Source: Candidatus Hydrogenedentota bacterium (GTDB lineage Bacteria > Hydrogenedentota > Hydrogenedentia > Hydrogenedentales > SLHB01). From it: 64,000 bases of DNA. A program made the position numbers and the translations under genes. The number at the start of each line of letters is the position of its first letter. Positions within the stretch are counted from its first letter, which is position 1. The notes under the pieces are model-generated. The model searched no databases and was not told the DNA's origin. It worked only from the letters and a program-made list of their open reading frames with translations. Shown here one piece after another: positions 21,195 to 63,175 of this stretch. The DNA is taken from the NCBI GenBank assembly GCA_963668025.2, contig CAXXTH010000017.1, forward strand, positions 192,001-256,000, read 5' to 3'.

Positions 21195-21477
21195 CCGCTA
21201 TTATGCCGCCCGCTTTACGGTTCCTCCACGGCGGGCATGCCCAGACAGCGATTCCGCAAGGTGGGGCCACGGACCGCATTTTGCTGGGGCAAAGGGCGTT
21301 TTTGAGTACGGAGCAGTTTCGGAAAGACGCCAAGGGCGTTTTTGCCAGGCAGTGGGGCCGCGCCAGAGGGGTCGTATCAGGGGCGGGGGAGTGAAAAGTG
21401 GGCGTAGGAGCAATAGTAGGGCGGTCCGGGTGTTGGCCGGTCGGCTGGGAACGGAGCGGTTGTGGGCTGAGAAGCCG

Positions 21478-22725
21478 CTATGTGGGCGGGCGCAACTGGC
21501 TGTAGAACTCAGCGGCGATGAGTCTAGCGAAGTATAGAGCCGTATGTCCCTGACGAAGTTCGGGTTTGATGTCACGAGTGAGCCAGGCATGGAACAGATT
21601 GTAGGCCAGCATGAGTAGGAGGAGTATCGCCACGATGGCGTTTGGGTCGTGGTGGTAGACGTGGTCGGCGTGCCAAAGTCCGGCCAGTTCGTTGAAGGCG
21701 TGATTTTCGATGTCCCATCGGCCGTGGCCGATAAGCACAATCGCAGTGGTAGTGGCCTTTTGAGCACTCAAACTGGCGGCCCAAAGCCATTCACTGGTGA
21801 GGGTTTGATCTCGCTCTTCCTTTTTGCCTCGTTGACGGCGCACGGTCCATGTCTCGAAGGAGCGCACGACCCGTACCTTGCGTCCGAGCTGGGTCCAGGA
21901 GTCAAAACCCTTTATGTCGTGGCATACGCACTGTCTTTTGCCATAGCTGAAGGGTACAGGATCCGTCTTTCCGGCTTCGAGTAGGGCTCGGAAGTCTTGA
22001 ATCAGGCCGCGGTTCTCATTCTTCAGGACGGCGATGAAATCCTTTTTGTGGTTCAGAATGAGCGTGCATAGGTGGGGATCGAGATACAGCGCGTCGCCCG
22101 CAACCACGTTGAACGCGCGCGGACAAACCTGCAACAGCCGTTTGAGCAGTCGCATGGCGGCGGCGATTTCGCCTTCTCCTTTCTGCTGTAGTTCCAAGTC
22201 CAGCAGCATGCGCCCGCCGTCGCACAAAAGATAGGCCATGACATAGCGGTGGTAGTATTGAGTCCGTTTTTCCCTGCCCTTGCCATAGGTTACTTCGCGT
22301 TCCGAACATTCAGGGCAAGAGCGCAGATAACTGGCGCACATCTCGTGGCCGTCCAAGATGAGCACCTGCAGGTTGCCGGGTAAAGGGCGCAACGTCTTTT
22401 TCCGCTTGCGCTGACGGTAGTGTTCGTATAGCAGCCCGCGCACGGTGTCCAAATCCATCAGGGCCGACACCTCACCCAGACGATCGGCGCTGGGCAGGTT
22501 TCCGTCCATCCAGCCATGCCACCGGCTGCGTTTGGATTCTATGTTCCCAAACGCCTCCTCGACGCCGTTGAAGCTGCCCAGGCGCACGCACAACGTGAAA
22601 AACACCTCCATGACTACCCGCATCGTAGGGATTTCCGGGGCCTTACGCCGGTCCGTAATCCGCCTGAGTTGATTGCGCAGATCGTAGACCTTTTCCCCAT
22701 ATTTAAGAAGGCGACTAAGAATCAG
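21478..22725 (-). CDS. DDE transposase (DDE_Tnp_1-like, ISAs1/IS4-related)
   Basis: LDGH, GEIAAA, AGDALY and RWDIEN motifs. First ATG is 22623, but the frame extends to an SD-preceded CTG at 22725. Confidence 0.88.
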   Translation of the reverse strand: MILSRLLKYGEKVYDLRNQLRRITDRRKAPEIPTMRVVMEVFFTLCVRLGSFNGVEEAFGNIESKRSRWHGWMDGNLPSADRLGEVSALMDLDTVRGLLYEHYRQRKRKKTLRPLPGNLQVLILDGHEMCASYLRSCPECSEREVTYGKGREKRTQYYHRYVMAYLLCDGGRMLLDLELQQKGEGEIAAAMRLLKRLLQVCPRAFNVVAGDALYLDPHLCTLILNHKKDFIAVLKNENRGLIQDFRALLEAGKTDPVPFSYGKRQCVCHDIKGFDSWTQLGRKVRVVRSFETWTVRRQRGKKEERDQTLTSEWLWAASLSAQKATTTAIVLIGHGRWDIENHAFNELAGLWHADHVYHHDPNAIVAILLLLMLAYNLFHAWLTRDIKPELRQGHTALYFARLIAAEFYSQLRPPT

Positions 22726-23050
22726 GCTGTTCCTTAAGCTCCTTGAGCTTCTGCCACGCGTCCTCCGACAGCTTCTCCAGCAATTCCTGCACGGCCTGGT
22801 AGTTCTTCACCCACGCGCGGACCTCTTCCTCCAACGACGGGGGTACAAACATCTGCCGCCGTTTCCCCTTCACCGTACACACCAGATACAGGGCCTGATG
22901 TCTTTCCCCTTTGGCGCAGCGGCACCCTGCTTTACCGCAGGTGACCGAGCGCGGATTGAGCGTGGCTCGAATCAGGGGGCGTTCGTGAACCAACTGCGCC
23001 AAACGGGACTGAAATTGGCGCTCTTGGGTGGACATTTGTATACGCGACAT
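22715..23050 (-). CDS. IS accessory protein, DUF6788-like, with putative Zn-binding motif
   Basis: CGKAGCRCAKGERH; GGAGG SD before the ATG (MSRIQM). Confidence 0.82.
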   Translation of the reverse strand: MSRIQMSTQERQFQSRLAQLVHERPLIRATLNPRSVTCGKAGCRCAKGERHQALYLVCTVKGKRRQMFVPPSLEEEVRAWVKNYQAVQELLEKLSEDAWQKLKELKEQPDS

Positions 23051-23161
23051 GCGACCTCCATCTTGTACCCTTATAATATACAAGACATAAGCCAAAAGTC
23101 AAGGTCAAAGATGAATGCGAATCTGATCGGGAAAAGGTGAGCCCGCCTAAGCCCGCCGCTC

Positions 23162-24604
23162 CTAAGAACTTACCCCCTCACACAAACCCTCGCTTGCGGA
23201 ATCGCTGATGCCCAGGCGGCAAACGGCCTCGGGCGTGATGAGGGCGTCAAAGGCGTCTTCAGCAAGGATTCCCTCTTCCAATACCAGTTGCCGGATGCTT
23301 CGATTTGAAGCCGCGGCGCGTTCAGCGATACTGCCTGCGGCGGCGTAGCCCAGGACGGGCACGAGGGCCGTGGCGGTAGCGGTCGAGGCCTCGACATGGG
23401 CGCGGCATCGGGTTTCATTGGCTTCCATGCCTTCGATGCAATACCGGCGCAAGATATTGCACGCTCCCGCGAGTAGCTGGCAACTATCGAGCAGGCACAT
23501 GGCCACCAGCGGCAGAAATGCGTTCAATTCGAGATTGCCCTGAGAACAGGCGAAGGCGATGGTTTGGTTATGGCCCATGACGAGCATGGCGGCTTGGCTG
23601 GCCGCCTCGGGTATGACGGGGTTCACCTTGCCCGGCATGATCGAGGAGCCCGCCTGGCGCGCGGGCAGCCGCAGCTCGCCAAAACCCGCTTCCGGCCCCG
23701 AGGAAAGCAGGCGCAGGTCCGTACAGACTTTTAGGAGTGTGGCGGCGCACGCGTTGAGAATGCCCGAAACCTCGACGAACACATCCGCATTCTGCGTCGC
23801 TTCGACAAGGTTCTCCGCGCGGGCGAAACCAATGCCCGTGCAATCGCGCAAAGCGTCCACGACCCGGAAAATATACTGCCGGGGCGCGGCGAGGCCCGTC
23901 CCGATAGCCGTGCCGCCCAGGTTGACGACGCGCAGGCGTTCTTCGCACTTATAAATGCGCCACCGGTCGCGGCTGAAGGCTTCGGCATAAGCGCCCATCT
24001 CGCGCCCGAGCGTGGTCAGCACCGCATCTTGCAGTTGCGTGCGGCCTACTTTGACAATATGGGCGAATGCCTTTTCCTTGGTTTGGAATGCTTCCTGCAA
24101 GGCCACAACACGCTCTTCGAGGATATACAGGAGCCGGATCGCCGCGAGTTTGAGGGCGGTGGGATAGGTATCGTTGGTGGATTGATGGCGGTTCACATCG
24201 CCAATAGGGGAAACGCAGCCATACGCTCCATGCGGTTCGCCCAGCATTTCCAGCGCACGATTGGCGATGACTTCGTTCACGTTCATATTGAGGCTAGTGC
24301 CCGCGCCGCCTTGGAGGGGATCCACGGCAATGTCCTCATCGAGCAAACCATCGGCCATTTCCTGGCAAGCCCGCAGCAGGGCATCCGCTTTGGCCGTATC
24401 CTCACGCCATACGCCGAGTCCATGGTTAGTTCGGGCGCACGCCAGTTTTACGAACCCATACGCCCGAATGAGTTCGGGATGTACGCGGCGGCCCGTGAGC
24501 GGGAAATTATCGAGCGCCCGCGCGGTATGCACCCCATATCGTTTCGCCTTCGGCACGCTCACTTCGCCCAAGGCGTCTCGTTCGACTCGGAATCCACCTA
24601 TCAT
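23162..24604 (-). CDS. aspA: Aspartate ammonia-lyase (fumarase class II superfamily); last 15 aa derive from the IS
   Basis: QGGAGTSLNMNVNE, QSTND, GRTQLQDA and GSSIMPGKVNPV motifs. Confidence 0.92.
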   Translation of the reverse strand: MIGGFRVERDALGEVSVPKAKRYGVHTARALDNFPLTGRRVHPELIRAYGFVKLACARTNHGLGVWREDTAKADALLRACQEMADGLLDEDIAVDPLQGGAGTSLNMNVNEVIANRALEMLGEPHGAYGCVSPIGDVNRHQSTNDTYPTALKLAAIRLLYILEERVVALQEAFQTKEKAFAHIVKVGRTQLQDAVLTTLGREMGAYAEAFSRDRWRIYKCEERLRVVNLGGTAIGTGLAAPRQYIFRVVDALRDCTGIGFARAENLVEATQNADVFVEVSGILNACAATLLKVCTDLRLLSSGPEAGFGELRLPARQAGSSIMPGKVNPVIPEAASQAAMLVMGHNQTIAFACSQGNLELNAFLPLVAMCLLDSCQLLAGACNILRRYCIEGMEANETRCRAHVEASTATATALVPVLGYAAAGSIAERAAASNRSIRQLVLEEGILAEDAFDALITPEAVCRLGISDSASEGLCEGVSS

Positions 24605-24845
24605 AGCTGCTCCCATTGGCGCACTCCGTGCGCATGGGCTTGATTATGGCACAGAGGCATGCCTGTTTTCGCACCGCATGCTCGGCATATGGCCGCCACA
24701 TGACCGAATACAATAAGAAACCTTGTATATGCGGCCAATGTCAAGGGAACAATCCAGGAAACCGGGACAACTCAGGGACGCACGCCAATGCCGGCCCGAA
24801 ATGCTCCGCACAGAGTGCCAGCGGCTTCCCCACATAGCATAAAGA

Positions 24846-24884
24846 AAAAGCCCCAAGGACCGTATTTTATAAGTCCTTGGGGCT
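24846..24884 (-). terminator. Intrinsic terminator following the displaced tRNA 3' end
   Basis: AGCCCCAAGGAC...GTCCTTGGGGCT hairpin with a flanking A-run (U-tail on the minus strand). Confidence 0.7.
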
Positions 24885-24891
24885 ATTGACA

Positions 24892-24945
24892 TTATATGGT
24901 GCCGGTGCACGGATTCGAACCGCGGACACGTGGATTATGATTCCA
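24892..24945 (-). repeat. att site: duplicated 3' end of tRNA-Met
   Basis: 54 bp identical to 30867-30920. Confidence 0.96.
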
Positions 24946-25073
24946 TATTTGCCGGTAATTTCGAGAAACATTAGGCTATATTAATACATGCGGTAAGCGC
25001 TAATATTATTGGTGTTTTTGCGTTTTTTACATTCCTTGTTGACTCTATGAATTTCCCGTGATATATTTCCGTT

Positions 25074-25094
25074 GGATCCCCGGTGGATCCCCAG
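25074..25094 (+). repeat. Putative integrase arm-type site (GGATCCCC x2)
   Basis: GGATCCCCGGTGGATCCCCAG is repeated exactly at 30786-30806 near the other att. Confidence 0.7.
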
Positions 25095-25109
25095 AAAGGA
25101 AGGCATGTC

Positions 25110-26399
25110 ATGGCGCGCGTAAAATTGACGGCAAAGGTAGTCGATGCCACCAAGCCTAAAAGCAGGGAATACAGCATACCGGATACAGAACAAAAAGGGC
25201 TTGTGCTTCGTGTTCGGCCATCCGGGGAGAAAACCTATTGCTTGCTCTATCGAAATGGGCAAGGACAGCGAAAGCGCTACACTATCGGCAATGTGGACAA
25301 ATACACTTTGACTCAGGCCCGCGCCGCCGCCACCCAGCAACTAGGCAAGATTGCATTAGGTACGGATGTACAGGAAGAACGAAAAGAAGCCCGCCAAGAG
25401 CGCCACACGCTAGAAAGCTTCATCACCCAAGTATACGCCCCATGGGCAAGCGCGAACCGGAAAGCAGGTGCGCACACCGCCCGCCGTGTGCTTCGAGCGT
25501 TCAAGTCCTTGCTTGATCTCGAACTGGCAACGATCACCCCGTGGCATATCGAGAAATGGCGGAGCGCCCGGACCCAGGACAGTGGCCGCCGTTCGCATGG
25601 CAACCGGGATATTGCCTGTCTGAAATCTGTTTTCAGCAAGGCCAAAGAATGGGGCTGTATCAGCGAGAGCCCGATCCGGGATGTGCGCCTTGCCCGGCAA
25701 GATAAGAGCATAGCCGTCAAGATCCGCATTCTTAGCCCAGAGGAAGAGGCCCGCCTTTGGGATGTCCTATTCGAGCGGGAAAAGCAGATACGCCACCACC
25801 GCGCCTCACATAACTTGTGGCTCCGTTCCCGAAAACTTGAAGAGCGCCAAGACCTAGATAAGTGCATGTTCGCGGACTGGCTCCGCCCTATGCTGACGAT
25901 CATGCTTCATTGCGGATTGCGCCGAAGCGAAGCCTTTCTCATTCAATGGGGCGATGTGGATTTTCAGACAGGTATGCTAATCATCCGGGGCGAGATCGCC
26001 AAGAGTGGACAGACCCGCGTGATTCCATTGAATGCCGCCGCCTTAGAATGTTTCAAGGCATGGCGTGCCCAGAGTCCCGGAGCGGATGGCTCCGTTGTGT
26101 TCCCAAACCCAGAAACGAGGCTTCCCTTCACCACGATCACCAAGACGTGGCATGAAGTACGCAAGGCCGCCGGACTGCCCGCCCTACGGCTTCATGATTT
26201 GCGGCATACGTTTTGTAGCCGCCTCTTGGCCGCCGGTGCGGACTTGCAGACCGTTCGAGAGCTTGCAGGACACACAAGCATATCCACGACGGCAATATAT
26301 TTGCACAGCACCCAGGACAGGAAGCGCGCCGCCGTGGAACTGCTAGGCCGCCCCTCGAACGTGATATCCCTCGATACCCACCGGGAAGGCTGTGCATGA
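25110..26399 (+). CDS. Tyrosine integrase with P4-like arm-binding domain
   Basis: N-terminal GLVLRVRPSGEKTY; catalytic GLRRSE, HDLRH and GH...TTAIY intact. Confidence 0.96.
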   Translation: MARVKLTAKVVDATKPKSREYSIPDTEQKGLVLRVRPSGEKTYCLLYRNGQGQRKRYTIGNVDKYTLTQARAAATQQLGKIALGTDVQEERKEARQERHTLESFITQVYAPWASANRKAGAHTARRVLRAFKSLLDLELATITPWHIEKWRSARTQDSGRRSHGNRDIACLKSVFSKAKEWGCISESPIRDVRLARQDKSIAVKIRILSPEEEARLWDVLFEREKQIRHHRASHNLWLRSRKLEERQDLDKCMFADWLRPMLTIMLHCGLRRSEAFLIQWGDVDFQTGMLIIRGEIAKSGQTRVIPLNAAALECFKAWRAQSPGADGSVVFPNPETRLPFTTITKTWHEVRKAAGLPALRLHDLRHTFCSRLLAAGADLQTVRELAGHTSISTTAIYLHSTQDRKRAAVELLGRPSNVISLDTHREGCA

Positions 26400-26516
26400 G
26401 CGCCAACACCCCGCATGAGGCCGCGCTAAGCGCCGCGAACGCCCCGCAAGCCGATAATCATACACGAAACGCCCTTGCTTCGATTGCGGGGCATCCTAGG
26501 CCGCCTCTTGGCCATC

Positions 26517-26545
26517 TTGACACGTGAGTAACAATAGGATATTAT
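26517..26545 (+). promoter_or_regulatory. Sigma70 promoter within the integrative element
   Basis: TTGACA-17 bp-TATTAT. Confidence 0.7.
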
Positions 26546-30441: not shown

Positions 30442-30871
30442 TGCTAAGAACGCCATTGTGATAAGCCGCCAGGTATGCCCCCTGGAAACGCTCGACAGGA
30501 AACCGAACCGGAACCGAGCTAGGTTCTCTCCAAAGCACCCGAAATGCCGCCCAGCGGGATACAGGCGGGATACAGAGCAAGCCAAAAGAAAACGCCCCAT
30601 AGGCCATAGCACCATAAAAGCCTATACAATAATGCCTTACAAAGAATTGCCAAGCTGGCTTGAACTAACAACCCTCTGCCTACTAGGCAGGTAAAAGCCC
30701 GAACCGCGCCATTTCGACCGCCCCCGGCATGCATCCTAGAGGCCGCCCCACGGGAACCGCTCAAAGCCTCCTTTTTTTGTCTGCCGGATCCCCGGTGGAT
30801 CCCCAGCCCAAACACAAGAGAAAAGCCCCGAGGACCGTCTTTTATAAGTCCTTGGGGCTTAATGCTTTATA

Positions 30872-30948
30872 TGGTGCCGGTGCACGGATTCGAACCGCGG
30901 ACACGTGGATTATGATTCCACTGCTCTAACCGACTGAGCTACACCGGC
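30872..30948 (-). tRNA. tRNA-Met (CAT), probably elongator
   Basis: GCCGGTGTAGCTCAGTCGGTTAGAGCAGTGGAATCATAATCCACGTGTCCGCGGTTCGAATCCGTGCACCGGCACCA; cloverleaf with encoded CCA. Confidence 0.96.
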
Positions 30949-42168: not shown

Positions 42169-42171
42169 AAT

Positions 42172-44001: not shown

Positions 44002-44709
44002 TCAGCCGAATATTTGGTCAATGACGCGAAGGCTCCGAAATTCCGTATCAAGCTGGCGCGCGGCGAATCTCCGCACCATGGCGAACACGCGCCCAATATC
44101 GCCCGTATCGAGCGTGGGGCAGCCCCCACGGGCTTGCGCCAGCGCGCGCAGCGCCTCGTATTCACCGGGCCGGAACCGCACATCGCATGGCTCGCCTGCC
44201 GCCGTGGAGCCGTGGCTATACGCGAATCCGGCTGGCTCGCCGCCACATTCCATGGACGGCTCATATCCCGCCGTGGACAGAACCTGAAGGGCCATCCAGG
44301 CCGCATGGATTTGGACGCAACCGGTCCAGTTTTCCATGCCTTCCAAACCCGACGCCACGGCTTCATACAGTTCGTAGGCCGGTTCATTCTCCTGGGCCGC
44401 CTTATACGCCAGCTCCAGCGGAAACGCGGCGTACACCGCCTTCGCCAGCTCGCGCTTGACGCCCGGATACCCATCCAGCAGCGACGCCTCGCCAAGCTTT
44501 TGCACATTCCGCCCATCTTTCCAATAATAGATGATTTCCAGGCGGTTGAACGTGTCCAGCAGTGCAGCCATCGGGCTTTTCGGCTGCCGCGCGCCGAGGG
44601 CCATGCATGCCAATTTGCCGCGATCCGGGCAAAGAAACGTGACAATGCGGCTCGTTTCACTAAAATCCACGCCGCGCAGCACTACGGCCTCGGTCCGTTC
44701 TTGCGACAA
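44002..44709 (-). CDS. recO: DNA repair protein RecO
   Basis: TEAVVLRGVDFSETSRIVT...GKLACMALGAR; start placed at TTG after AGGAGG. Confidence 0.9.
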   Translation of the reverse strand: MSQERTEAVVLRGVDFSETSRIVTFLCPDRGKLACMALGARQPKSPMAALLDTFNRLEIIYYWKDGRNVQKLGEASLLDGYPGVKRELAKAVYAAFPLELAYKAAQENEPAYELYEAVASGLEGMENWTGCVQIHAAWMALQVLSTAGYEPSMECGGEPAGFAYSHGSTAAGEPCDVRFRPGEYEALRALAQARGGCPTLDTGDIGRVFAMVRRFAARQLDTEFRSLRVIDQIFG

Positions 44710-44854
44710 TCCTGCCTCCTGCCGCTGGCGGCTGCTAAAAGCCGCTAAAGCATACCATTCCACGGCATATCAAGCAAGCGGAGCATCCAAGCAGGGCTTA
44801 CGCATCTAATAGTGCTCAAGAGTCGATTTATCCTGTTGTGCATGATTTTTTCTG

Positions 44855-45154
44855 TCAACGTGGCCTGGGATTTTTCGCTTGGGGGAAGGTCTTTGCGCGC
44901 TCACGGCGGGTTTGCTTGACGACTTCGTCCACGTAGCGTTCAGCCAGCTTCATGAAAGCCTGGTAGCCATTGATGGCCTCTTTTAGGAACTCGGTTTCGC
45001 GCGCCGGCACATAGCGAACCACGTTCTTCTCGTTCTCCCAGCTCTGGTGGTTAAAGTGGGGACGCCCGCCCATTTGACAGAGCTTTCCGCGCTCCATCCG
45101 CTCAATCTGCGCCATGCGCTCCAGCAATGCTTGCATCTTTTTGGTGTGCTTCAT
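44855..45154 (-). CDS. IS accessory protein, DUF6788-like, lacking the Cys cluster
   Basis: MERGKL...SWENEKNVVRYVP...AINGYQAF parallels the small ORFs of elements A and B; conserved in both IS copies. Confidence 0.75.
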   Translation of the reverse strand: MKHTKKMQALLERMAQIERMERGKLCQMGGRPHFNHQSWENEKNVVRYVPARETEFLKEAINGYQAFMKLAERYVDEVVKQTRRERAKTFPQAKNPRPR

Positions 45155-45225
45155 GGATTTTAATATATAGAATTCTATATACTAGAGTCAACAGTGCTTC
45201 GGCGCATGAATGAAAGGAGCACCCC

Positions 45226-46383
45226 ATGACCGCTGAAAAGAAATCCCTGCCCAAGCCCAAGCCTATTATCGAGTGTTTCGCGGGCCTGCCTGATCCCCGC
45301 ATGGACCGGACCCGCAGGCACAACTTCATTGACATCTTGGTGATTGGGCTATGCTCAGCCCTCGTGGGCGGAGAGAGCTTTTCGGATATGGAGCGCTTCG
45401 GCCGGCTCCGGGAGGATTGGCTGAAGGGCTTCCTGGAATTGCCCGGCGGCATCCCCTCGCACGACACCTTCAACCGGGTCTTTTCCGCCCTCGACCCCCA
45501 TGCCTTTCTGGAATGCTTCGGCCAATGGGTGCAGGGCATTTGCCCCAATCTGAGCGATGAGGTCGCCGCCATTGACGGCAAAGCCCTGCGGCGCGCCTTG
45601 AATCAGGGGGAGGCCATCCCCTACATCGTCAGCGCATGGGCTTGCGAGCACGGCCTGGCGCTGGGGCAGGTCAAGGTGGACGAGAAATCCAACGAAATCA
45701 CCGCCGTCCCCAAACTCCTCAACGCCTTAAAGCTCAAGGGAGCCATCGTCACCCTGGACGCCATGGGCTGCCAGAAGGATATCGCCTCCCACATTATCCA
45801 ACGGCAGGCCGACTACGTGCTGGCCCTCAAAGGCAACCACGCCACCGCCCTAGAAGAAGTGAAGGCCTTTTTCAAGGACGCCGTTCCCCCTTGCGCCACC
45901 CAGTGCGCGCCAACAGCCGACGCCACACGGATGGATTTCCACCAGACCATCGACAAGGGGCATGGCCGCATCGAAACCCGCCGATACTGGCAATCCACCG
46001 ACTTGGGCTGGTTCGAGGACAAAGGACTTTGGAAGGGCCTCAAGAGTTTCGGCATGGTCGAGTCCATCCGCAAGGAAAAAGGGAAGAACACCATCGAGCG
46101 GCGCTACTACTTGAGCAGCCTGCTCCTCGACGCACGACGATTCGCCCACGCCGTGCGTGGACACTGGGGCGTGGAAAACAATTTGCACTGGTGCCTAGAC
46201 ATTATCTTTCGCGAAGACGACAACCGCGCCCGAACAAGAAACGCCGCCCAGAATCTCGCCTCCTTGAGGAGAATTACACTCAACCTCCTCAAGAAAGACA
46301 AGACCAACAAAGATTTCCTCAGGGGCAAGCGCTTCGCTGCTGCACTCGACCCCGAATACCTTCTACGTTTACTGGGAATTTAG
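45226..46383 (+). CDS. ISAs1-family transposase
   Basis: GIPSHDTFNRVF, AIDGK, KSNEITA, DAMGCQ, LKGN and HWGVENNLHW motifs. Confidence 0.97.
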   Translation: MTAEKKSLPKPKPIIECFAGLPDPRMDRTRRHNFIDILVIGLCSALVGGESFSDMERFGRLREDWLKGFLELPGGIPSHDTFNRVFSALDPHAFLECFGQWVQGICPNLSDEVAAIDGKALRRALNQGEAIPYIVSAWACEHGLALGQVKVDEKSNEITAVPKLLNALKLKGAIVTLDAMGCQKDIASHIIQRQADYVLALKGNHATALEEVKAFFKDAVPPCATQCAPTADATRMDFHQTIDKGHGRIETRRYWQSTDLGWFEDKGLWKGLKSFGMVESIRKEKGKNTIERRYYLSSLLLDARRFAHAVRGHWGVENNLHWCLDIIFREDDNRARTRNAAQNLASLRRITLNLLKKDKTNKDFLRGKRFAAALDPEYLLRLLGI

Positions 46384-46579
46384 ATGCGTAAGCCCTGAGC
46401 ATCCAAGGTGCAGCGGTGAAGAATAGCGGCGCCCCAGGGTCAGGCGTTGAGGTGATGCGGGTTAGACGGGGGGTGGCGAGGCCGACAGGCGACAGGAGGG
46501 GCAGCGGCTGTGCGTAAAGCCGGTGAATGGATGGGCGAGACGTGTAGGGCGGCGGCGCAACCGGGAACGCGCGGGCGCC

Positions 46580-48016
46580 CTATGCGGAACTGAAGCGGAT
46601 CTGGATGGCCTCGGTGCAGAGGGCGTCATATTGTTCGCGGGACAGGGTGGCGTTGCGCAGGGCTTCGAGGAGGCGATGGGCAAGGTTTCTGGCGGAGCCA
46701 AAGCCTTTTGGAAAGTGGGCGGCCAGAAGGCTGCCATCCTCCAGGAGTTGCATGAGCAGATGGGCTATCTGCATCAAGAGGTAGTAGATCTTGCTGGCCT
46801 GTTCGTTTTGGGTATAGGCGTGTTCGAGGTTGTAGCCGCCGTTTTTCTGCACGTTGAATGCTTCATTTTCAATCTTCCAGCGTAAGCGTCCTCCTTCATT
46901 GGCCAAGGCGGCCGCATTGTGCGCGGATACGGATACGTTGGTCACCCATTTGAACTTGGTTTTCTTTATCATGCCTTCCGCGTCCGGGCGGGTGTCCACG
47001 CATTCGAGCACGGACAGGATGTGTTCACGCCGCTCGGAATCGCGGTAGGGGATGTCGTTGACCCAGCGAAACTGCTGGTGGATTTCCTTCTTGTTGCCGC
47101 AACGCCACGTAAGCTGGTTTTCGGGCGTCGCGGCCGCGAGGCTCTCGAATTCTTCGTTCACGGTGGCCAATTGGCCGTCCGTGAGCGTAATCATGAACTT
47201 CCAGCCATATTGCTGGCACAGCCGAAACACCGGTCCCGTGGCGTACAGGCCGTCCATCGCCAACAGCAGCGGCAAGCGGGGGAATCGGGCATGCAGGCGT
47301 GGGGCCAGCCGGTAGAAGGCTTTGGTCTCGCAATCCTGCTTGCGTTGTTGCTCGCTTTTCGCCAGGTCTTTCTCTGGATTCTCAATGAACTCCGTCATGA
47401 GCGAAAAGACCCACCCGTTTGGCGTGACGATCTTGGACTCCAGCACGGGATGGTAGTAGGTGATCTTGCCGCTCTTGTGCTTGCGCGTGAGGCAATGGGC
47501 GCAGTGGCGATGATCATAACTGCGTGTCCCCGTGGCGTCGATGGCCGCCACGTAGTAGCGCCCGAACAGGCGGTGGGGGTACAACACCTTCTTGTCGATG
47601 AGCGTCTGCGTCATGCCGGAAACGAGTTCCTGGACCGCCTCGAACGGCAAACCGCGAAATACCCCGTTCATCGTATCGCCATGCGGCACGCTGTCCACGT
47701 CAAACAAGACCTTGTACAGATGGACCATGAACGTCGTGTACAACTGCAGGCGGACTTGCCGGCGCGCCCCGAGCCGGCATGCGAACATCAGCACTCCCAA
47801 GAACACCAGCGACGCGACACTGTAGTCCACGTCGCCGGCTTGCTCGGGTTTGCGGGGATCGGGCAAGCCCGCAAAGCGCTTGCGCACCGGGCCAAAGAAG
47901 TGGGTGAACGTCCTCAAGAAGGCCCGGATGATTTCCGGATGCTCTTCTTGCGGGTTTGCAGGAACTGCCGTTGGGCCGCGCCCATGGCCTCGACGAGCTT
48001 CTTGAGCTTTTTCCAT
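46580..48016 (-). CDS. DDE transposase (DDE_Tnp_1-like, ISAs1/IS4-related)
   Basis: PHGDT, AIDAT, KQDCE, MDGLY and RWKIENEAFN motifs. Confidence 0.9.
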   Translation of the reverse strand: MEKAQEARRGHGRGPTAVPANPQEEHPEIIRAFLRTFTHFFGPVRKRFAGLPDPRKPEQAGDVDYSVASLVFLGVLMFACRLGARRQVRLQLYTTFMVHLYKVLFDVDSVPHGDTMNGVFRGLPFEAVQELVSGMTQTLIDKKVLYPHRLFGRYYVAAIDATGTRSYDHRHCAHCLTRKHKSGKITYYHPVLESKIVTPNGWVFSLMTEFIENPEKDLAKSEQQRKQDCETKAFYRLAPRLHARFPRLPLLLAMDGLYATGPVFRLCQQYGWKFMITLTDGQLATVNEEFESLAAATPENQLTWRCGNKKEIHQQFRWVNDIPYRDSERREHILSVLECVDTRPDAEGMIKKTKFKWVTNVSVSAHNAAALANEGGRLRWKIENEAFNVQKNGGYNLEHAYTQNEQASKIYYLLMQIAHLLMQLLEDGSLLAAHFPKGFGSARNLAHRLLEALRNATLSREQYDALCTEAIQIRFSSA

Positions 48017-48261
48017 TCCTCAATCCATTGCGCCACTTCGCGGCGCAATTCACGGGGCACGTGGAGGGTGCGGGTCTTCCCGCCCTCCTTCCACGTCAGC
48101 AGGGCCGTTTCATGGATCGGCCCTTCCTGGACGCACCGGCAGCGCGGGTTCCCGCAGCGGCTGCGGGTGATGGTGAGCGTGGCGGGAAGAAAGGGCCCCA
48201 GACGCGCCAGGCGCGCCTGGACCTTGCGTCCCGCCGAGTTCGTGACAGGTTTCCCTTCCAT
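47914..48261 (-). CDS. IS accessory protein, DUF6788-like
   Basis: CGNPRCRCVQEGPIH...LTWKEGGKTRTLHVP; ATG lies 7 nt after the -10 box. Confidence 0.82.
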   Translation of the reverse strand: MEGKPVTNSAGRKVQARLARLGPFLPATLTITRSRCGNPRCRCVQEGPIHETALLTWKEGGKTRTLHVPRELRREVAQWIEEWKKLKKLVEAMGAAQRQFLQTRKKSIRKSSGPS

Positions 48262-48551
48262 GTACGGAAGTATATATACTTCCGTACCAGAAGTCAACAA
48301 AAAAAAGCGCCGATGCGAAGAAAAAACTCCCCGCACCGGCGCATCCTCAACTCATTCAACTGCTTCTACGCGAAAAAAAAGCGGTTCTTCACCGCTGTCC
48401 AAGGTGGGGGAACCGCAGCAACTATTTTGGGCATGGTTCGTGGATGCGCCCATTCGAGATAGTGGTTAGGATATCTGGTTAGGATATAATCATTAGCCAT
48501 GTCATGCGCGTTTATTGATGATTTTCGGCCGAACTTGCTTTGCTGAAGCTC

Positions 48552-48627: not shown

Positions 48628-48704
48628 AATCCGTACCAACGTTTTTCCGTTCCTCAAAACATGCTGTACCGAAGTGGCAAATCATCTGGTTTTTCCACCA
48701 CTAA

Positions 48705-48826
48705 GGAGGCGCGTCAAAATAACTTGACTATTTTTTCGCATTCAACGCAATTTTCATGGCGATAGGAATTACCGCTTCCTTTCCGAGTGGTGGGAGAAAA
48801 TCGGTAAGTTATTTTGACGCGACTCC
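48705..48826. mobile_element. 122-bp MITE, copy 2
   Basis: Same sequence as 6708-6829 except the first base; TAA on both sides. Confidence 0.9.
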
Positions 48827-48967
48827 TAAGACACAAGGGGTGAACTGCGCGTTGCTCGCTTCCACCTTCAGATTACCCTATACAATGAATTCCCGTGAGC
48901 TTCTTCGCGCCCTCGCGCCTTCGCGTGAATAATTGCTTAACCTCATGGGCCGCTTCAGACGGAGTTC

Positions 48968-55843: not shown

Positions 55844-55858
55844 GGCGTGTCCTTCCGG

Positions 55859-57821: not shown

Positions 57822-57837
57822 AGCAATGGGTGTGCCA
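57822..57837 (-). promoter_or_regulatory. Sigma-54 (-24/-12) promoter of hsp20
   Basis: Minus strand TGGCAC-ACCCA-TTGCT, consensus spacing, about 75 bp upstream of the ATG. Confidence 0.75.
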
Positions 57838-57985
57838 AGAAAAGAAAAGGCGCAAAAAGGCCCGTTTTTCAACGAAATGGGGCGGAAAAGAGGAAAGGGG
57901 CTTTTTGTGGACGTTTCAATTTGCCATACCAGTGTTTCAGGATGAAGCGTCCCCGGGGCAGGCATGTCGCCATTCATAAATAACA

Positions 57986-58013
57986 CGGGCGCTCCCACCG
58001 AGGGGAGCGCCCG
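57986..58013 (-). terminator. Terminator after rpsI
   Basis: CGGGCGCTCCC...GGGAGCGCCCG hairpin followed by TGTTATTT on the minus strand. Confidence 0.7.
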
Positions 58014-58041
58014 CGAAATGGCACAAGTAAAAAATCGTGTT

Positions 58042-58440
58042 CTAGCGCTTGGAAAACTGGAAGCGTTTGCGTGCGCCCGGCTGGCCGTACTTTTTACGCT
58101 CCACTTCACGCGCATCACGCGTAAGCAGGCCTGCACGCCTTAACACGGGGTGCATGCCCTCATCCGTTTCCGCCAAGGCCCGGGCGATGCCCAGCCGAAG
58201 CGCTCCCGCTTGGCCGGATAAGCCGCCGCCAGCACAACGGGCGCGGACATCAAATTTATCCACCGTATCCGTTGCCAGGAACGGCTGCTTGGCCAGCATG
58301 ACCAACACCTCGCGCGCCAAATACTGCTCGACGGGCCGCCCATTGACGATAAGCTTCCCCGTGCCTGGGCTGAGGCGCACACGCGCACTTGCGGCCTTGC
58401 GGCGTCCGATAGTTACGACTTCCTTAATGGGTGCTGCCAC
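58042..58440 (-). CDS. rpsI: 30S ribosomal protein S9
   Basis: GRRK, GGGLSGQAGA and ERKKYGQPGARKRFQFSKR motifs. Confidence 0.99.
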   Translation of the reverse strand: MAAPIKEVVTIGRRKAASARVRLSPGTGKLIVNGRPVEQYLAREVLVMLAKQPFLATDTVDKFDVRARCAGGGLSGQAGALRLGIARALAETDEGMHPVLRRAGLLTRDAREVERKKYGQPGARKRFQFSKR

Positions 58441-58465
58441 GGTCTACATTCTCCTTGCTGTGCGT

Positions 58466-58900
58466 CTATTTGCCCATGGGGTGGATGTTGGGGAGCTGCG
58501 CGTCATGGGGGTGGTCCGCCCCTGCATAAACTCGTACGCCCCGAAGGAGTTTCCGGCCCATGCGGTTATGGGGCAACATGCCCTTCACCGCCAACATCAT
58601 GGCCCGAGTTGGATGCTTTTCCATAAGGCCGCTATACGTCCATTCCCGCATGCCGCCTTTATACCCCGAGTGGGAGTAATACTTTTTCTGCTCTTCTTTA
58701 GCGCCCGTAACACGCGCTTTCGCGGCATTAATAATAATGACGTGGTCGCCGCAATCGAGATAGGGCGTAAACTGAGGTTTGTGTTTGCCGCGCAGCAATT
58801 TCGCCGCTTCAGCAGCAACGCGCCCGAGCACTAAGCCTTCCGCATCCAGGATCAACCACTTTTTTGTTATATCTCCCTCTTTGGGGACGTATGTCTTCAC
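58466..58900 (-). CDS. rplM: 50S ribosomal protein L13
   Basis: LRGKHKPQFTP..DCGD, HSGYKGG and VKGMLP motifs. Confidence 0.99.
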   Translation of the reverse strand: MKTYVPKEGDITKKWLILDAEGLVLGRVAAEAAKLLRGKHKPQFTPYLDCGDHVIIINAAKARVTGAKEEQKKYYSHSGYKGGMREWTYSGLMEKHPTRAMMLAVKGMLPHNRMGRKLLRGVRVYAGADHPHDAQLPNIHPMGK

Positions 58901-58968
58901 CGTTTCCTACCTCCGGCACGCAGTTTCGCGGGCGCAATAAACACTTCTTCCTAGAGATGAGCCGCGAA

Positions 58969-58997
58969 AGGATACCAAACGCCTGCAAGAATGTCAA
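58969..58997 (-). promoter_or_regulatory. Sigma70 promoter of rplM-rpsI
   Basis: Minus strand TTGACA-17 bp-TATCCT. Confidence 0.7.
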
Positions 58998-59191
58998 GCG
59001 CGCTAGATTCATAAAAACTAGCCTGTCTTTTCCCTCAAACCGCCCAAAAGATAACAACTACGGAAATTATACATCCAAATGAGGCATAATAAAAACCATG
59101 AGGCCGGAGCCATGCCTCCCGGATTGTAGCGCATGGGTGCAACAGCCCTTTGAGCATGGCTGCCCGAGCCGATGAGGAATGCGGGCGTTTC

Positions 59192-60397
59192 ATGGATGCC
59201 GTTCAGGGAAAACAAGCGCCAATGCCGTCAAACGCGCATGGGTTGCCAGATAGGATTGCCGTCGCTGGCGGTTGGGGCTACATTGGCCGGAAAGTAGTGA
59301 ATGCCGCTCTCGAGCTGGGCATCGAAGTCTGCGTGCTGGACCCTGCCCCTTTTCCCGAGGAATTGCATGGCGTATATGGCTTGCGCATATACAAAGACCC
59401 AGAAGCCTTCTATGCGCTTCCCGCTGGATTTTTTCATCTGGCCTTGCATCCGCACATGCGCGCGGCCGCTCTCGAGCATCTATTCAAGCGGGCTGCTCGA
59501 GGCGAGGCGGTTTATGTACTCAACGAAAAACCAATGACGGCCCCAGAGACGCCGTGGGAATGCCATGAACTCATCAAGCTGGCCGAAGCGTCCCGCATAT
59601 ACATGGCGTTTGATTTTCTCGAACTCTTTGATCCGATGACGCAACACATCATGGATTACTTGTCCGGCTTTAATCAGGTGCAGTTTACCCGCATCTCGCT
59701 GCACCGCTCGAAAGACCGGGAGAATCCAGATAATCCCCGAAATTATAAAGTCATCACCCCCATCCCATATCAAGAAACGGTCCACGACTTTGCATTCCTA
59801 TTGGCCATTCTGGGCCATACGCATCCAGGCGGCCTCCCGGCGGTGCTTGAGCAGCCGCTCTCGCTGCAAGGAAAATCCGAACCGTACATCCCGCCTAATC
59901 CCGCTGATTATCCCTACATGGTGGATGGGCGCACGGAGGGATGCATGGCCCTGGGCAAGGCCAAGGCCCATTTCTACACCGATTTTAAGGCGGGCGCTCC
60001 GTTCCAAAAAACAAAAATACTCGAAGGCATGGCCGACAACACGCCGTTCCGCATCGAAGCGAATTATCTAGAAGGCGCCAAATACCTTCGCATCAACAGC
60101 GAAGACCAAGGCTTCGCCCCGGATAGCAATACATACCAAGCCATCATTCGCCAGCTCTGGCGCTGGCGGAACCGGCTCCAGTGGGAAACATTCACCCATG
60201 GGCTATATCCCAATATGGCTTTCGCGCGCTGGACTTATCTGCTCTCCGCCGCACTTTGGGACGCCTGCCATTCGCATCAAACCGTGCTGATACCTGGCAA
60301 AAACGCACTCTTGTCTTATGCGCCGTCCTTTCCCGCCGCTGTACGGAAACTGCCCGCCTACGCCGCAAGAACGCGCCAGGAGATGCCCGCGGGCTGA
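59192..60397 (+). CDS. Gfo/Idh/MocA-like NAD(P)-dependent oxidoreductase
   Basis: IAVAGGWGYIG Rossmann motif, NEKP and ETVHD. Start is uncertain. Confidence 0.72.
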   Translation: MDAVQGKQAPMPSNAHGLPDRIAVAGGWGYIGRKVVNAALELGIEVCVLDPAPFPEELHGVYGLRIYKDPEAFYALPAGFFHLALHPHMRAAALEHLFKRAARGEAVYVLNEKPMTAPETPWECHELIKLAEASRIYMAFDFLELFDPMTQHIMDYLSGFNQVQFTRISLHRSKDRENPDNPRNYKVITPIPYQETVHDFAFLLAILGHTHPGGLPAVLEQPLSLQGKSEPYIPPNPADYPYMVDGRTEGCMALGKAKAHFYTDFKAGAPFQKTKILEGMADNTPFRIEANYLEGAKYLRINSEDQGFAPDSNTYQAIIRQLWRWRNRLQWETFTHGLYPNMAFARWTYLLSAALWDACHSHQTVLIPGKNALLSYAPSFPAAVRKLPAYAARTRQEMPAG

Positions 60398-60406
60398 AAG
60401 CGCCCG

Positions 60407-61357
60407 TTATGCCTTGCGCTTATCCCGCCGATCAGCAGGCGCGCCGCCTTCCCCCCGCACGCCAGCCAGAAAATCCCATATCCCGCGGATAAATGCCTTG
60501 TGGGCGGGCCAATTGGCGAATCCATATGCGCGCACTTGCCAGTACAGCGTGCGCATGTAATGCAGCGAATGCCGGAGAATGCCTAGCGGTTTTCCATAAC
60601 GGAAAAGGCAGATCAAACGGTTGCGGGTGAAAAAATAAGTGATGAAGGGGGAAATATGCCCTGTGGTCTGGCCGTGGGCATGAATGACCTCGGCTTGCCC
60701 CACCGTGAGCAATTTATAACCCTTCCGCAAGAACCGGCAGCATAAGTCGTAGTCCTCCCAATTCGTGAACAGGCGTTCGTCAAAAAGCCCCACTTCCCGA
60801 AGCGCCTCGGGCCGGAACATCACCGCGCACGCGGGGGCGAAACCCGTTTCTACCGTGGCCCGGTATTCCTCCGTGAGCAGTTCGCCTTCGTGCAAGTGGG
60901 AATGATAGGCGCAATCCGGGACGATCACGCCCGAGTGGAAATCCATGCGCTTTTCCTCACCCGGACGCAACAGCACGGCGGAGGCCATCGCGGCATCGGG
61001 CCTTTGTTCCATGGCATCCGTGAGATGCTGGATGGCGTCCGCATGCACGATGGTGTCGTTATTCAGCAGGAAGACATAATCCGCTCCCATATCGAGGGCG
61101 CGCTCGATGCCGCGATTGCATCCGCCGGTAAAGCCATAATTGCGGTCGAGCTGGACCGTCTCGATATGCGGAAACCGTTTTTTAAGCATTTGGCAAGAAG
61201 GCGGATTGGTGCCATTGTCCACCACCACGATATCGGCGGCGGGATAATTGCCGGATTCGATGGATTCTATACAGCGGGATGTCATTTCCGTATCATTCCA
61301 GGTGAGAATCACCGCAATGACATAAGGCGCTGTATGGGAAGCCGTATTATCGCGCAT
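60407..61357 (-). CDS. GT2 glycosyltransferase (rhamnosyltransferase-like)
   Basis: ILTWN, VDNG, NYGFTGGCN, LLNND and WEDYDLC motifs. Confidence 0.93.
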   Translation of the reverse strand: MRDNTASHTAPYVIAVILTWNDTEMTSRCIESIESGNYPAADIVVVDNGTNPPSCQMLKKRFPHIETVQLDRNYGFTGGCNRGIERALDMGADYVFLLNNDTIVHADAIQHLTDAMEQRPDAAMASAVLLRPGEEKRMDFHSGVIVPDCAYHSHLHEGELLTEEYRATVETGFAPACAVMFRPEALREVGLFDERLFTNWEDYDLCCRFLRKGYKLLTVGQAEVIHAHGQTTGHISPFITYFFTRNRLICLFRYGKPLGILRHSLHYMRTLYWQVRAYGFANWPAHKAFIRGIWDFLAGVRGEGGAPADRRDKRKA

Positions 61358-61456
61358 GTGGCGAACTCCTACGAGTAATCCTTGCGTAAATGGAAAACCG
61401 CACCAGACATCGCCATAATACCGGCCTCGGCGAAGGCCTGCAAATCCGCCCCGTTT

Positions 61457-61506
61457 CGTAGCATGGGCGTCTCGTCCATGCGCATGGCCGGGACGGCCAT
61501 GCTACG
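61457..61506. repeat. REP-like doublet (CGTAG-type)
   Basis: CGTAGCATGGGCGTCTCGTCCATG CG CATGGCCGGGACGGCCATGCTACG. Confidence 0.7.
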
Positions 61507-61530
61507 GGATCACCCCCAGGGCTTACGCAT

Positions 61531-62688
61531 CTAAATTCCCAGTAAACGTAGAAGGTATTCGGGGTCGAGTGCAGCAGCGAAGCGCTTGCCCCTGAGGAAA
61601 TCTTTGTTGGTCTTGTCTTTCTTGAGGAGGTTGAGTGTAATTCTCCTCAAGGAGGCGAGATTCTGGGCGGCGTTTCTTGTTCGGGCGCGGTTGTCGTCTT
61701 CGCGAAAGATAATGTCTAGGCACCAGTGCAAATTGTTTTCCACGCCCCAGTGTCCACGCACGGCGTGGGCGAATCGTCGTGCGTCGAGGGGCAGGCTGCT
61801 CAAGTAGTAGCGCCGCTCGATGGTGTTCTTCCCTTTTTCCTTGCGGATGGACTCGACCATGCCGAAACTCTTGAGGCCCTTCCAAAGTCCTTTGTCCTCG
61901 AACCAGCCCAAGTCGGTGGATTGCCAGTATCGGCGGGTTTCGATGCGGCCATGCCCCTTGTCGATGGTCTGGTGGAAATCCATCCGTGTGGCGTCGGCTG
62001 TTGGCGCGCACTGGGTGGCGCAAGGGGGAACGGCGTCCTTGAAAAAGGCCTTCACTTCTTCTAGGGCGGTGGCGTGGTTGCCTTTGAGGGCCAGCACGTA
62101 GTCGGCCTGCCGTTGGATAATGTGGGAGGCGATATCCTTCTGGCAGCCCATGGCGTCCAGGGTGACGATGGCTCCCTTGAGCTTTAAGGCGTTGAGGAGT
62201 TTGGGGACGGCGGTGATTTCGTTGGATTTCTCGTCCACCTTGACCTGCCCCAGCGCCAGGCCGTGCTCGCAAGCCCATGCGCTGACGATGTAGGGGATGG
62301 CCTCCCCCTGATTCAAGGCGCGCCGCAGGGCTTTGCCGTCAATGGCGGCGACCTCATCGCTTAGATTGGGGCAAATGCCCTGCACCCATTGGCCGAAGCA
62401 TTCCAGAAAGGCATGGGGGTCGAGGGCGGAAAAGACCCGGTTGAAGGTGTCGTGCGAGGGGATGCCGCCGGGCAATTCCAGGAAGCCCTTCAGCCAATCC
62501 TCCCGGAGCCAGCCGAAGCGCTCCATATCCGAAAAGCTCTCTCCGCCCACGAGGGCTGAGCATAGCCCAATCACCAAGATGTCAATGAAGTTGTGCCTGC
62601 GGGTTCGGTCCATGCGGGGATCGGGCAGGCCCGCGAAACACTCGATGATAGGCTTGGGCTTGGGCAGGGATTTCTTTTCAGCGGTCAT
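61531..62688 (-). CDS. ISAs1-family transposase
   Basis: 385 aa; differs from copy 1 at two residues (R/W, L/P). Confidence 0.97.
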   Translation of the reverse strand: MTAEKKSLPKPKPIIECFAGLPDPRMDRTRRHNFIDILVIGLCSALVGGESFSDMERFGWLREDWLKGFLELPGGIPSHDTFNRVFSALDPHAFLECFGQWVQGICPNLSDEVAAIDGKALRRALNQGEAIPYIVSAWACEHGLALGQVKVDEKSNEITAVPKLLNALKLKGAIVTLDAMGCQKDIASHIIQRQADYVLALKGNHATALEEVKAFFKDAVPPCATQCAPTADATRMDFHQTIDKGHGRIETRRYWQSTDLGWFEDKGLWKGLKSFGMVESIRKEKGKNTIERRYYLSSLPLDARRFAHAVRGHWGVENNLHWCLDIIFREDDNRARTRNAAQNLASLRRITLNLLKKDKTNKDFLRGKRFAAALDPEYLLRLLGI

Positions 62689-62759
62689 GGGGTGCTCCTT
62701 TCATTCATGCGCCGAAGCACTGTTGACTCTAGTATATAGAATTCTATATATTAAAATCC

Positions 62760-63059
62760 ATGAAGCACACCAAAAAGATGCAAGCATTGCTGGAGCGCAT
62801 GGCGCAGATTGAGCGGATGGAGCGCGGAAAGCTCTGTCAAATGGGCGGGCGTCCCCACTTTAACCACCAGAGCTGGGAGAACGAGAAGAACGTGGTTCGC
62901 TATGTGCCGGCGCGCGAAACCGAGTTCCTAAAAGAGGCCATCAATGGCTACCAGGCTTTCATGAAGCTGGCTGAACGCTACGTGGACGAAGTCGTCAAGC
63001 AAACCCGCCGTGAGCGCGCAAAGACCTTCCCCCAAGCGAAAAATCCCAGGCCACGTTGA
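62760..63059 (+). CDS. IS accessory protein, DUF6788-like
   Basis: Protein identical to 44855-45154. Confidence 0.75.
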   Translation: MKHTKKMQALLERMAQIERMERGKLCQMGGRPHFNHQSWENEKNVVRYVPARETEFLKEAINGYQAFMKLAERYVDEVVKQTRRERAKTFPQAKNPRPR

Positions 63060-63175
63060 CAGAAAAAATCATGCACAACAGGATAAATCGACTCTTGAGC
63101 ACTATTAGATGCGTAAGCCCTGGGATTCAAGAGATGATGCTTCACTTTGCTTCGTTTATTGCTTATACTGCACGT

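Follow-up and report, generated by a model that had tools for sequence, protein, structure and literature searches.

The 64,000-nucleotide window considered here (the whole stretch of DNA that was analysed, positions 192,001 to 256,000 of contig CAXXTH010000017.1 in the Candidatus Hydrogenedentota assembly GCA_963668025.2) contains four insertions of three different insertion sequences (ISs), each of which carries, beside a transposase gene, a small open reading frame (ORF) whose product is a candidate regulator of transposition. Element A (1,962 bp, positions 21246–23207, minus strand) encodes an unclassified transposase of the DDE type; element B (1,987 bp, 46411–48397) is likewise on the minus strand; and an ISAs1-family element is present as copy 1 (1,606 bp, 44792–46397, plus strand) and copy 2 (61517–63122, minus strand), which are 100% identical over 1,606 nt and inverted to each other. 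When each element was compared by blastn with the window's own genome (6.1 Mb in 24 contigs), the alignments of the copies started and stopped exactly at these coordinates, and full-length copies numbered 3 for A, about 16 for B and about 18 for the ISAs1 element, nearly all of them 99.4–100% identical (one B copy is 98.6% identical). The initial annotation of the window had described three different ISs, each with an ORF of 99–115 amino acids (aa) inside its ends, and this description was confirmed at the coordinates it had given.

The ends of the elements are CAGCGATTCCGCAAG in A (15-bp inverted repeats), CAGCGGTGAAGAA in B (13-bp inverted repeats) and CAGGGCTTACGCATCTAA in the ISAs1 element (18-bp inverted repeats), and the terminal repeats start with CAGCG in both A and B and with CAGGG (extended, CAGGGC) in ISAs1. 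Target duplications of 9 bp flank two of the three A copies, with 8 of 9 positions matching around the copy in the window, and 9 of 15 B copies, that of the window among them (46402–46410 and 48398–48406); 10 of 18 ISAs1 copies have duplications of 10 bp and one more has a duplication of 9 bp. Within the window, copy 1 has its 10-bp duplication and copy 2 is without one, in agreement with the earlier count of 9–10 bp duplications at three of the four insertions.

A single 13-bp target (44782–44791, 46398–46410 and 48398–48406), lying just after a 253-aa ORF (44002–44763), received both copy 1 of the ISAs1 element and element B at points only 4 nt from each other, and the target duplications of the two overlap. 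A 484-aa ORF (23162–24616), which by eye we take to resemble fumarase/aspartase, overlaps the end of element A by 45 nt (23162–23207), and its last 15 codons and stop codon come from the element.

In element A the small ORF (111 aa, 22715–23050, minus strand) encodes a C-x4-C-x-C...H motif and is accompanied by a transposase frame (DDE_Tnp_1, Pfam 38.6 bits) at 21478–22722 on the same strand, with its first ATG at 22623. In element B a small ORF of 115 aa with a Cys/His motif (47914–48261, minus strand) overlaps by 103 nt the gene of a 478-aa transposase in the −1 frame (46580–48016, minus strand). The 99-aa small ORF of the ISAs1 element (44855–45154, minus strand) is without the Cys loop and diverges from the gene of a 385-aa transposase that matches transpos_ISAs1 (45226–46383, plus strand); by mirror mapping, copy 2 has its small ORF at 62760–63059 (plus strand) and the dyad described below at 62733–62750.

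The small ORFs and the DUF6788 family

Membership of the family was judged by the Pfam profile DUF6788 (PF20586) at its gathering threshold of 27.2 bits for the whole protein. The small ORFs of A and B pass with 52.3 and 55.5 bits, as do those of further classes of element, namely C (50.7), S1 (36.2), D (33.0) and E (28.0), the last being a second ISAs1-family element with a DUF6788 ORF in the window's genome. The ISAs1 small ORF of the window stays below the cut-off, with 14.8 bits (E 0.033) over its C-terminal half only. A profile of three ISAs1-type ORFs, when compared by hhalign with the DUF6788 profile, matches it at 98.5% (E 2.7e-15, 81 columns), with its gap falling at the Cys loop of DUF6788, and the E-type ORF, which itself passes, shares 58% identity with the window's ORF. 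The proposed homology of the small ORFs is thus upheld by Pfam for A and B and by profile–profile comparison for the ISAs1 form, and both the common protein pattern and the absence of the Cys cluster from ISAs1 are visible in the alignment. Since the Cys3-His motif occurs in only 20 of the 34 family members compared, loss of the cluster is common and not special to ISAs1. Judged by these profiles, the small ORFs of A, B and ISAs1 are one protein family, DUF6788.

PF20586 is a family with no assigned function, and "DUF6788 family protein" is the product name at NCBI, used in RefSeq plasmid records. When 1.84 billion representative proteins were searched with a profile, 2,940 clusters matched at E ≤ 1e-3. 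A search of the ESM Atlas gave 30 matches, all of them to DUF6788 clusters and none to a further family, and a cluster look-up of the window's proteins gave no informative names. In the literature that was searched, no paper contained the term "DUF6788" and none paired "ISAs1 family" with "second ORF"; broader searches of the IS literature, and passages of PMC3281130, held no information on a DUF6788 gene.

All 34 small proteins are basic, with isoelectric points above 9 and a median of 10.3. The AlphaFold2 model of the B protein, with a predicted local distance difference test (pLDDT) value of 92.5, begins with a helix, continues with three strands, of which the first and second are separated by the Cys/His loop, and closes with a helix of 40 residues. 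In the predicted homodimer the long helices lie antiparallel, and the pair scored 0.80, while the best of 3 controls reached 0.00; at least 95% of the contacts are common to the runs, and the partner has a pLDDT of at least 83. A mark of 0.80 was reached by 20 of 30 proteins solved as homodimers and by 1 of 23 solved as monomers, counts that hold only roughly because our own alignment was used. The prediction supports the view that the small protein pairs as a symmetric homodimer, and the Cys3-His motif, where it is present, would be a knuckle that binds zinc. A sequence profile search of the PDB for a solved relative returned coiled-coil noise only, and the best VIA-align matches of the whole B model (Z 6.8) are coiled-coil look-alikes. 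Foldseek rows for the N-terminal domain (E ≥ 0.26) include several double-stranded RNA-binding domains with the same alpha-beta3-alpha order, a resemblance that we treat as a lead only.

Promoters and clade-specific dyads

In all three elements, a dyad overlaps or adjoins the small gene's own promoter. In element A, the dyad TCTTGTA-N11-TACAAGA (23061–23085, minus strand) places its 7-bp arms and 11-nt spacer around the −10 box of a promoter-like site, TTGACT-16/18-TATATT/TATTAT (23073–23102, minus strand). In element B, a perfect 26-bp palindrome (48262–48287, minus strand) covers the −10 box of TTGACT-17-TATACT (48269–48297, minus strand) and ends at the ATG; its 13 of 13 pairs were reached by none of 200 shuffles. 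In the ISAs1 element, a perfect 18-bp palindrome (45164–45181), which grows to 24 bp if one mismatch is allowed, lies between the divergent genes and over the −10 box of the small ORF promoter, TTGACT-18-TATATT (45162–45191, minus strand). The TTGACT boxes and dyads had been placed at these positions by the initial annotation, and dyad search and promoter scan agree with it: the top sites of the consensus scan, with 10 of 12 matches, coincide with its three positions, and sites numbered 4 and 2 as against 0.9 and 0.7 expected in shuffles (2 against 0.7 in the element A region).

In B and ISAs1 the ATG stands 7 nt past the −10 box, with no Shine-Dalgarno sequence. This layout, noticed earlier in these two elements, is conserved in ISAs1-type relatives, where 18 of 19 lack a Shine-Dalgarno sequence and 12 of 19 upstream regions fit a −35 box, a −10 box and a start codon 5–9 nt later; the mRNAs of both small ORFs are probably leaderless. 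The small ORF of element A has GGAGG 5 nt ahead of its ATG. Between the end of B and its promoter there are two terminator-like hairpins (48380–48396 and 48307–48342, together within 48307–48396, minus strand), the second of which is conserved in a relative, L057 (related loci are given here by L numbers), and these hairpins would block read-through transcription from outside.

A broader comparison used dyads of at least 9 matched pairs with no more than 1 mismatch and a spacer of up to 14 nt, lying within 90 nt upstream of the start codon. Such dyads precede 17 of the 34 small ORFs as against 184 of 2,500 control gene upstream regions of the same genome (7.4%; 58 of 832 among AT-rich ones), and 13 of 34 as against 3.5% when only 60 nt are considered, although these counts overstate independence because the loci are related to one another. 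More telling, in our view, than the bulk enrichment is the pattern among clades: when the dyads are set against the protein tree, half-sites track well-supported protein clades while spacers vary. For example, A, L059 and L061 have identical arms (TCTTGTA / TACAAGA) around an 11-nt spacer that differs, and their sister clade of L056, L063 and L064 has CTGATA / TATCAG. B and L057 have GAAGTATATATACTTC as a shared core, TGTAGTA / TACTACA is found in C and S1, and ACAAGTATA.ATACTTGT is found in 4 of 7 IS4-linked ORFs. Among the ISAs1-type relatives, 13 of 16 loci have an upstream dyad of at least 7 pairs. The suggestion that upstream dyads would co-vary with protein clade is therefore borne out, in that homologous elements carry dyads and half-sites follow clades.

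Symmetry of this kind need not mean an operator. The small protein might instead be a non-transcriptional cofactor that binds the transposase and acts in transpososome assembly, target choice or the recruitment of host factors, in which case the dyads would simply be promoters that are symmetric or fire in both directions, or hairpins by which read-through transcripts are silenced. The extended palindrome does hold −35 and −10 boxes on both strands in the ISAs1-type loci L065, L068 and L074, protein clade tracks transposase family as expected of a protein partner, and hairpins that mask translation starts on transcripts from outside are a known IS device. However, the 7-bp arms of the A type are invariant while the 11-nt spacer, including the −10 box, changes, for which neither a weak hairpin nor a promoter motif offers an explanation; B has outer arms that are no part of the promoter and already possesses its two upstream hairpins; co-oriented elements have no second promoter to explain the symmetry; and the predicted symmetric dimer suits a symmetric site. 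Dyad symmetry may be partly promoter-derived in the divergent ISAs1 elements, but not in A- and B-type elements, and we consider a cofactor of this sort unlikely.

Coupling to the transposase gene and spread among mobile elements

The small gene had been described as co-oriented with, and overlapping, the transposase gene in A and B, and as divergent from it in ISAs1. This is accurate for the overlap in B and for the divergent genes of ISAs1; in A, the annotated ATG (22623) gives no overlap, and it is only the open frame upstream of it that reaches into the small ORF. This frame, +1 with respect to the small ORF, stays open ahead of the first ATG and is conserved there; GATTCTTAG does not vary among the three diverged elements A, L059 and L061; and the ATT at 22722–22720, which overlaps the small ORF stop by 8 nt, aligns with the ATG of the transposase of the related L064. 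Because of these features, the element A transposase probably starts at the ATT, coupled to termination of the small ORF. The overlap of small ORF and transposase frame is conserved in A-type elements, and in IS5-type relatives the stop of the one and the start of the other overlap as ATGA. In B, the internal ATG of the transposase is conserved in L057. A −1 frameshift fusion at TGG AAA AAG in B was considered and rejected, the run being AAG AAG in L057 and the copies of B showing no length variation.

Class C presents a different case. In 9 of 11 copies the junction between its two frames is an A9 run; one copy has A10 and one A11, and the A10 copy reads as an in-frame fusion of 524 aa. This fits the joining of small ORF to transposase by a −1 shift or by transcriptional slippage at the run; alternatively, the A10 copy could be the only active one, mobilising the rest. 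Both class C and class D belong to the ISKra4 family by NCBIfam, with GGG ends and duplications of 8–9 bp. The transpos_ISKra4 model (cut-off 205) gives 213.2 bits for the fused class C copy and 212.7 for S1, and its match to the class C fusion starts only at residue 128, beyond the DUF6788 part. In class D (11 copies; L031, G000:C3:111300-117584) two overlapping ORFs, of 211 and 263 aa, take the place of a single ISKra4-type transposase gene and match the two halves of the family model, which could reflect a second recoding site or decay. Two places (G000:C20:11826-15630 and G000:C18:332578-335486) share one junction, in which 8 nt separate a class C element from the end of a B element; either a composite was duplicated or insertion took place more than once at one site.

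Class C also brings into view an explanation in which DUF6788 is a transposase subunit of the OrfA type, that is, a detached DNA-binding or end-recognition part which, either by itself or within a recoded fusion, works on the terminal inverted repeats and not as a repressor at a promoter, after the manner of IS1 InsA/InsAB′ and IS3 OrfA/OrfAB. The join at the A9 run and the 524-aa copy are what this would predict, and it gains from the −1 frame and long overlap of the B transposase, from a 559-aa fusion of DUF6788 with UPF0236 elsewhere (the one longer fused relative in a word-index search, which is a weak measure of fusion rarity) and from the two-ORF, −1 frameshift transposases that the text of PMC3942029 describes in the ISMich2 group, part of the ISKra4 family. 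It is difficult to reconcile with the other elements: a search for the half-sites of A, B and ISAs1 elsewhere in their own elements, terminal repeats included, found none; fusion is impossible in 8 divergent arrangements and in the ISAs1 types; it is the internal ATG of B and not its AAAAAG run that is conserved in L057; the A transposase is in the +1 frame and has a probable start of its own; and the best 150 of the 2,940 family clusters are all short, at 90–223 aa. With the B run not conserved, A in the +1 frame and the divergent types unable to fuse, frameshift fusion appears confined to the ISKra4-type element of class C, which is also where support for an end-binding subunit stops, and we judge this explanation to be improbable.

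DUF6788 is matched 49 times in the window's genome, across no fewer than seven IS types; its partners there are ISAs1 transposases of two types, ISKra4 transposases of three (C, D and S1) and the DDE transposases of A and B. Repeat boundaries enclose the small ORF in A, B, ISAs1, C, D and E, in agreement with the original view that these ORFs are parts of mobile units alongside different transposases. A 131-nt repeat resembling a miniature inverted-repeat transposable element, with 40-nt inverted ends, is found at 6703–6833 and 48700–48830 of the window and is represented in the genome by 12 copies of 110 nt or more; three of them stand about 135 nt away from E-type DUF6788 matches, apparently in the control region that separates the small ORF from the ISAs1 transposase gene, and the repeat may account for the 1,700-bp length of type E and for its weak dyad.

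ISAs1-family elements have terminal inverted repeats starting with CAGGG and target duplications of 8–10 bp, and they are usually described with a single ORF. The ISAs1 transposase of the window scores 397.1 bits with the NCBIfam model transpos_ISAs1 (cut-off 70), and its element holds, beyond the transposase gene, the second and divergent ORF of 99 aa. The same model gives 19.3 bits for the A transposase and no match for that of B; in BLASTP, the ISAs1 transposase is matched by A at E 7e-4 and by B at 1e-3, and A and B match each other at 1.6e-10. On these comparisons A and B are remote relatives of ISAs1, not members. A third ISAs1 type in the genome (428 bits; two copies, G000:C21:1120-2061 and G000:C10:554105-555046) has no small ORF in the approximately 215 nt from its CAGGGC end to the transposase start, where a different 7-bp dyad lies upstream of the transposase gene; the small gene is thus optional within the family. 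The initial annotation had defined "a two-gene ISAs1-related IS group", a grouping that is too narrow or wrong: A and B fail the ISAs1 model, one ISAs1 type has no small ORF, and the family also occurs with IS4, IS5, IS1634, IS1182, ISKra4 and a plasmid recombinase.

Across the phylum, the family was found in 44 of 135 genomes as against 0 of 14 control genomes. Examination of 29 loci from other genomes of the phylum, 28 of them distinct, revealed an adjacent transposase at 17 (8 divergent, 9 co-oriented), belonging to IS4 (five), IS5 (two), ISKra4 (two), IS1634 (one), IS1182 (one), the A-like DDE group (five) and the B-like group (one). The ISAs1-type ORF occurs at 18 loci in species-representative genomes, named metagenome-assembled genomes (MAGs) of several phyla (11 Hydrogenedentota, 3 Nitrospirota-like and 1 each of Bacteroidales, Anaerolineales, Lentisphaerae and Victivallales), and a divergent ISAs1 transposase is present at 11 of the 16 loci with upstream sequence. 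The ISAs1-type control regions of L061, from the same family as the window's genome, and of L065, from a Nitrospiraceae MAG, are identical over the 45 nt compared, which despite the different phyla points to recent transfer or a binning error. In the two RefSeq plasmids examined, from Paraburkholderia and Burkholderia, a gene annotated as "DUF6788 family protein" (L083 3079-3333 and L084 3001-3333) lies between a Y4bD/Y4pK gene and a gene for a 690-aa recombinase and adjoins a group II intron reverse transcriptase; given this recombinase context, DUF6788 is not limited to DDE elements. Overall, as far as these occurrences reach, DUF6788 is a widespread accessory gene of insertion sequences and not a feature of one IS group.

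A gene that travels so widely might be a passenger, hitch-hiking in ISs while serving the host or the element in a role outside transposition, such as the control of a host gene or of another mobile element. Loci at which the ORF has no detectable transposase (4 of 16 of the ISAs1 type, L044 and L051) are what one would expect of a passenger, as is its position in the Burkholderiaceae plasmids between Y4bD/Y4pK and large recombinase genes. These solo cases may, however, be IS remnants or cut contigs, and a passenger would account poorly for the fixed position of the gene at the promoter-proximal end of the element, its translational coupling to the transposase gene and the recurrence of the same arrangement across many IS families. 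We regard this explanation as highly improbable.

Elsewhere in the window, a 100-nt direct repeat, 92% identical between 24846–24945 and 30821–30920, resembles the 3′ part of a tRNA gene followed by a hairpin.

A candidate autorepressor and its counterparts

The reading that we favour, with a probability of roughly 60%, is that the DUF6788 small protein is an IS-borne dimeric autorepressor with element-specific operators. In such a model, a basic protein of about 100–125 aa, with an N-terminal helix, a three-stranded sheet and, in some cases, a Cys3-His zinc knuckle, would pair through its long C-terminal helix, antiparallel to that of a second chain, and the dimer would bind the element-specific dyad at or next to its own gene's promoter. 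In the co-oriented, translationally coupled types (A, B, IS5-type and ISKra4-type) the same promoter would drive the transposase, and in the divergent types (ISAs1, IS4, IS1634 and IS1182) the promoter and the transposase gene would share one short control region. We propose that, through binding at the dyad, transposase expression would fall as copy number rises. A basic protein of predicted symmetry, a dyad at the promoter of its own gene and a transposase gene that is downstream or divergent together suggest the layout of a transposon autorepressor.

Several observations weigh against the autorepressor. DNA binding and repression are both deduced. The relatedness of the loci, mentioned above, tempers the enrichment of dyads, and the other 17 of the 34 ORFs, for example L036, L039, L049 and the E type, have no dyad of at least 9 pairs within 90 nt. 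Part of the AT-richness at the centre of several dyads is due to −10 boxes, and the symmetry of the divergent ISAs1-type regions could come from two opposed promoters alone. Of the 28 phylum loci, 11 show no transposase: contig ends truncate at least four of them, ordinary genes (for a protease and a dehydrogenase) adjoin two, and three stand beside large ORFs that match no known family. The plasmid gene is in an operon with the recombinase, and the one upstream region examined has no obvious dyad. As to structure, the whole B model has no Foldseek match at E ≤ 0.001, and the N-terminal domain alone (pLDDT 82.5) has a best Z of 2.5; neither has a clear solved relative.

A wider claim, which we put forward tentatively and hold to be somewhat short of an even chance, is that DUF6788 constitutes a control module, not recognised before, that is common to many families of bacterial mobile DNA. 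The protein would be a dimer that binds DNA, its fold would be one without a solved relative, and it would have been recruited by two unclassified DDE groups and by ISAs1, IS4, IS5, IS1634, IS1182 and ISKra4, at least eight transposase lineages in all, and probably by serine-recombinase elements as well, with its own operator co-evolved in each. If this were true, each IS family in a crowded genome would possess a private copy-number sensor, since the protein would act in trans on copies of its own type and not on other types. Descriptions of ISAs1, IS4, IS1634 and IS1182 elements usually give them one gene; for such families, one protein family with private operators would be a common and testable answer to how their activity is held down. 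It would also give a function to a family of about 2,900 representative clusters and supply a set of short, orthogonal repressor–operator pairs, and IS annotation would improve because small ORF and dyad mark the promoter-proximal end. The window's genome is suited to testing these ideas, as seven such element types, in about 65 copies, lie side by side in it.

A close functional counterpart may be InsA of IS1, a small, basic, Cys-containing protein which is encoded first, represses its own promoter and limits transposase; the IS1 transposase gene overlaps that of InsA, and a −1 shift at an A-run gives the InsAB′ fusion. DUF6788 is alike in being a small, basic, first-encoded protein with Cys residues, and the A-run fusion of class C resembles InsAB′. 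Yet there is no IS1 family among the Pfam matches of the small ORFs at E ≤ 1; InsA acts at terminal repeats that bear the promoter, whereas the DUF6788 dyad lies 100–130 bp inside the element and is absent from its ends; and most DUF6788 genes are never fused. For the divergent arrangements, a likeness can be drawn to TnpR of the Tn3 family, which binds between divergent tnpA and tnpR and represses both. The divergent control region recurs here in the ISAs1, IS4, IS1634 and IS1182 arrangements, but TnpR is a serine recombinase that resolves cointegrates, and DUF6788 is a 100-aa protein without a catalytic domain.

The third comparison is with OrfA/OrfAB of IS3 and with the ISMich2 group of the ISKra4 family, in the latter of which two ORFs are joined by programmed −1 recoding, as described in the text of Guerillot et al. 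(2014; PMC3942029). Class C shares with both the two ORFs and, probably, the −1 recoding. That text makes no mention of the family to which the upstream ORF belongs, the supplementary tables of additional ISKra4 ORFs being outside the search, and DUF6788 differs from the ISKra4 scheme in that it can also be divergent from an ISKra4 transposase (L037). The best reading of these analogies would be that DUF6788 works in the manner of IS1 InsA or IS3 OrfA, while being a member of neither family.

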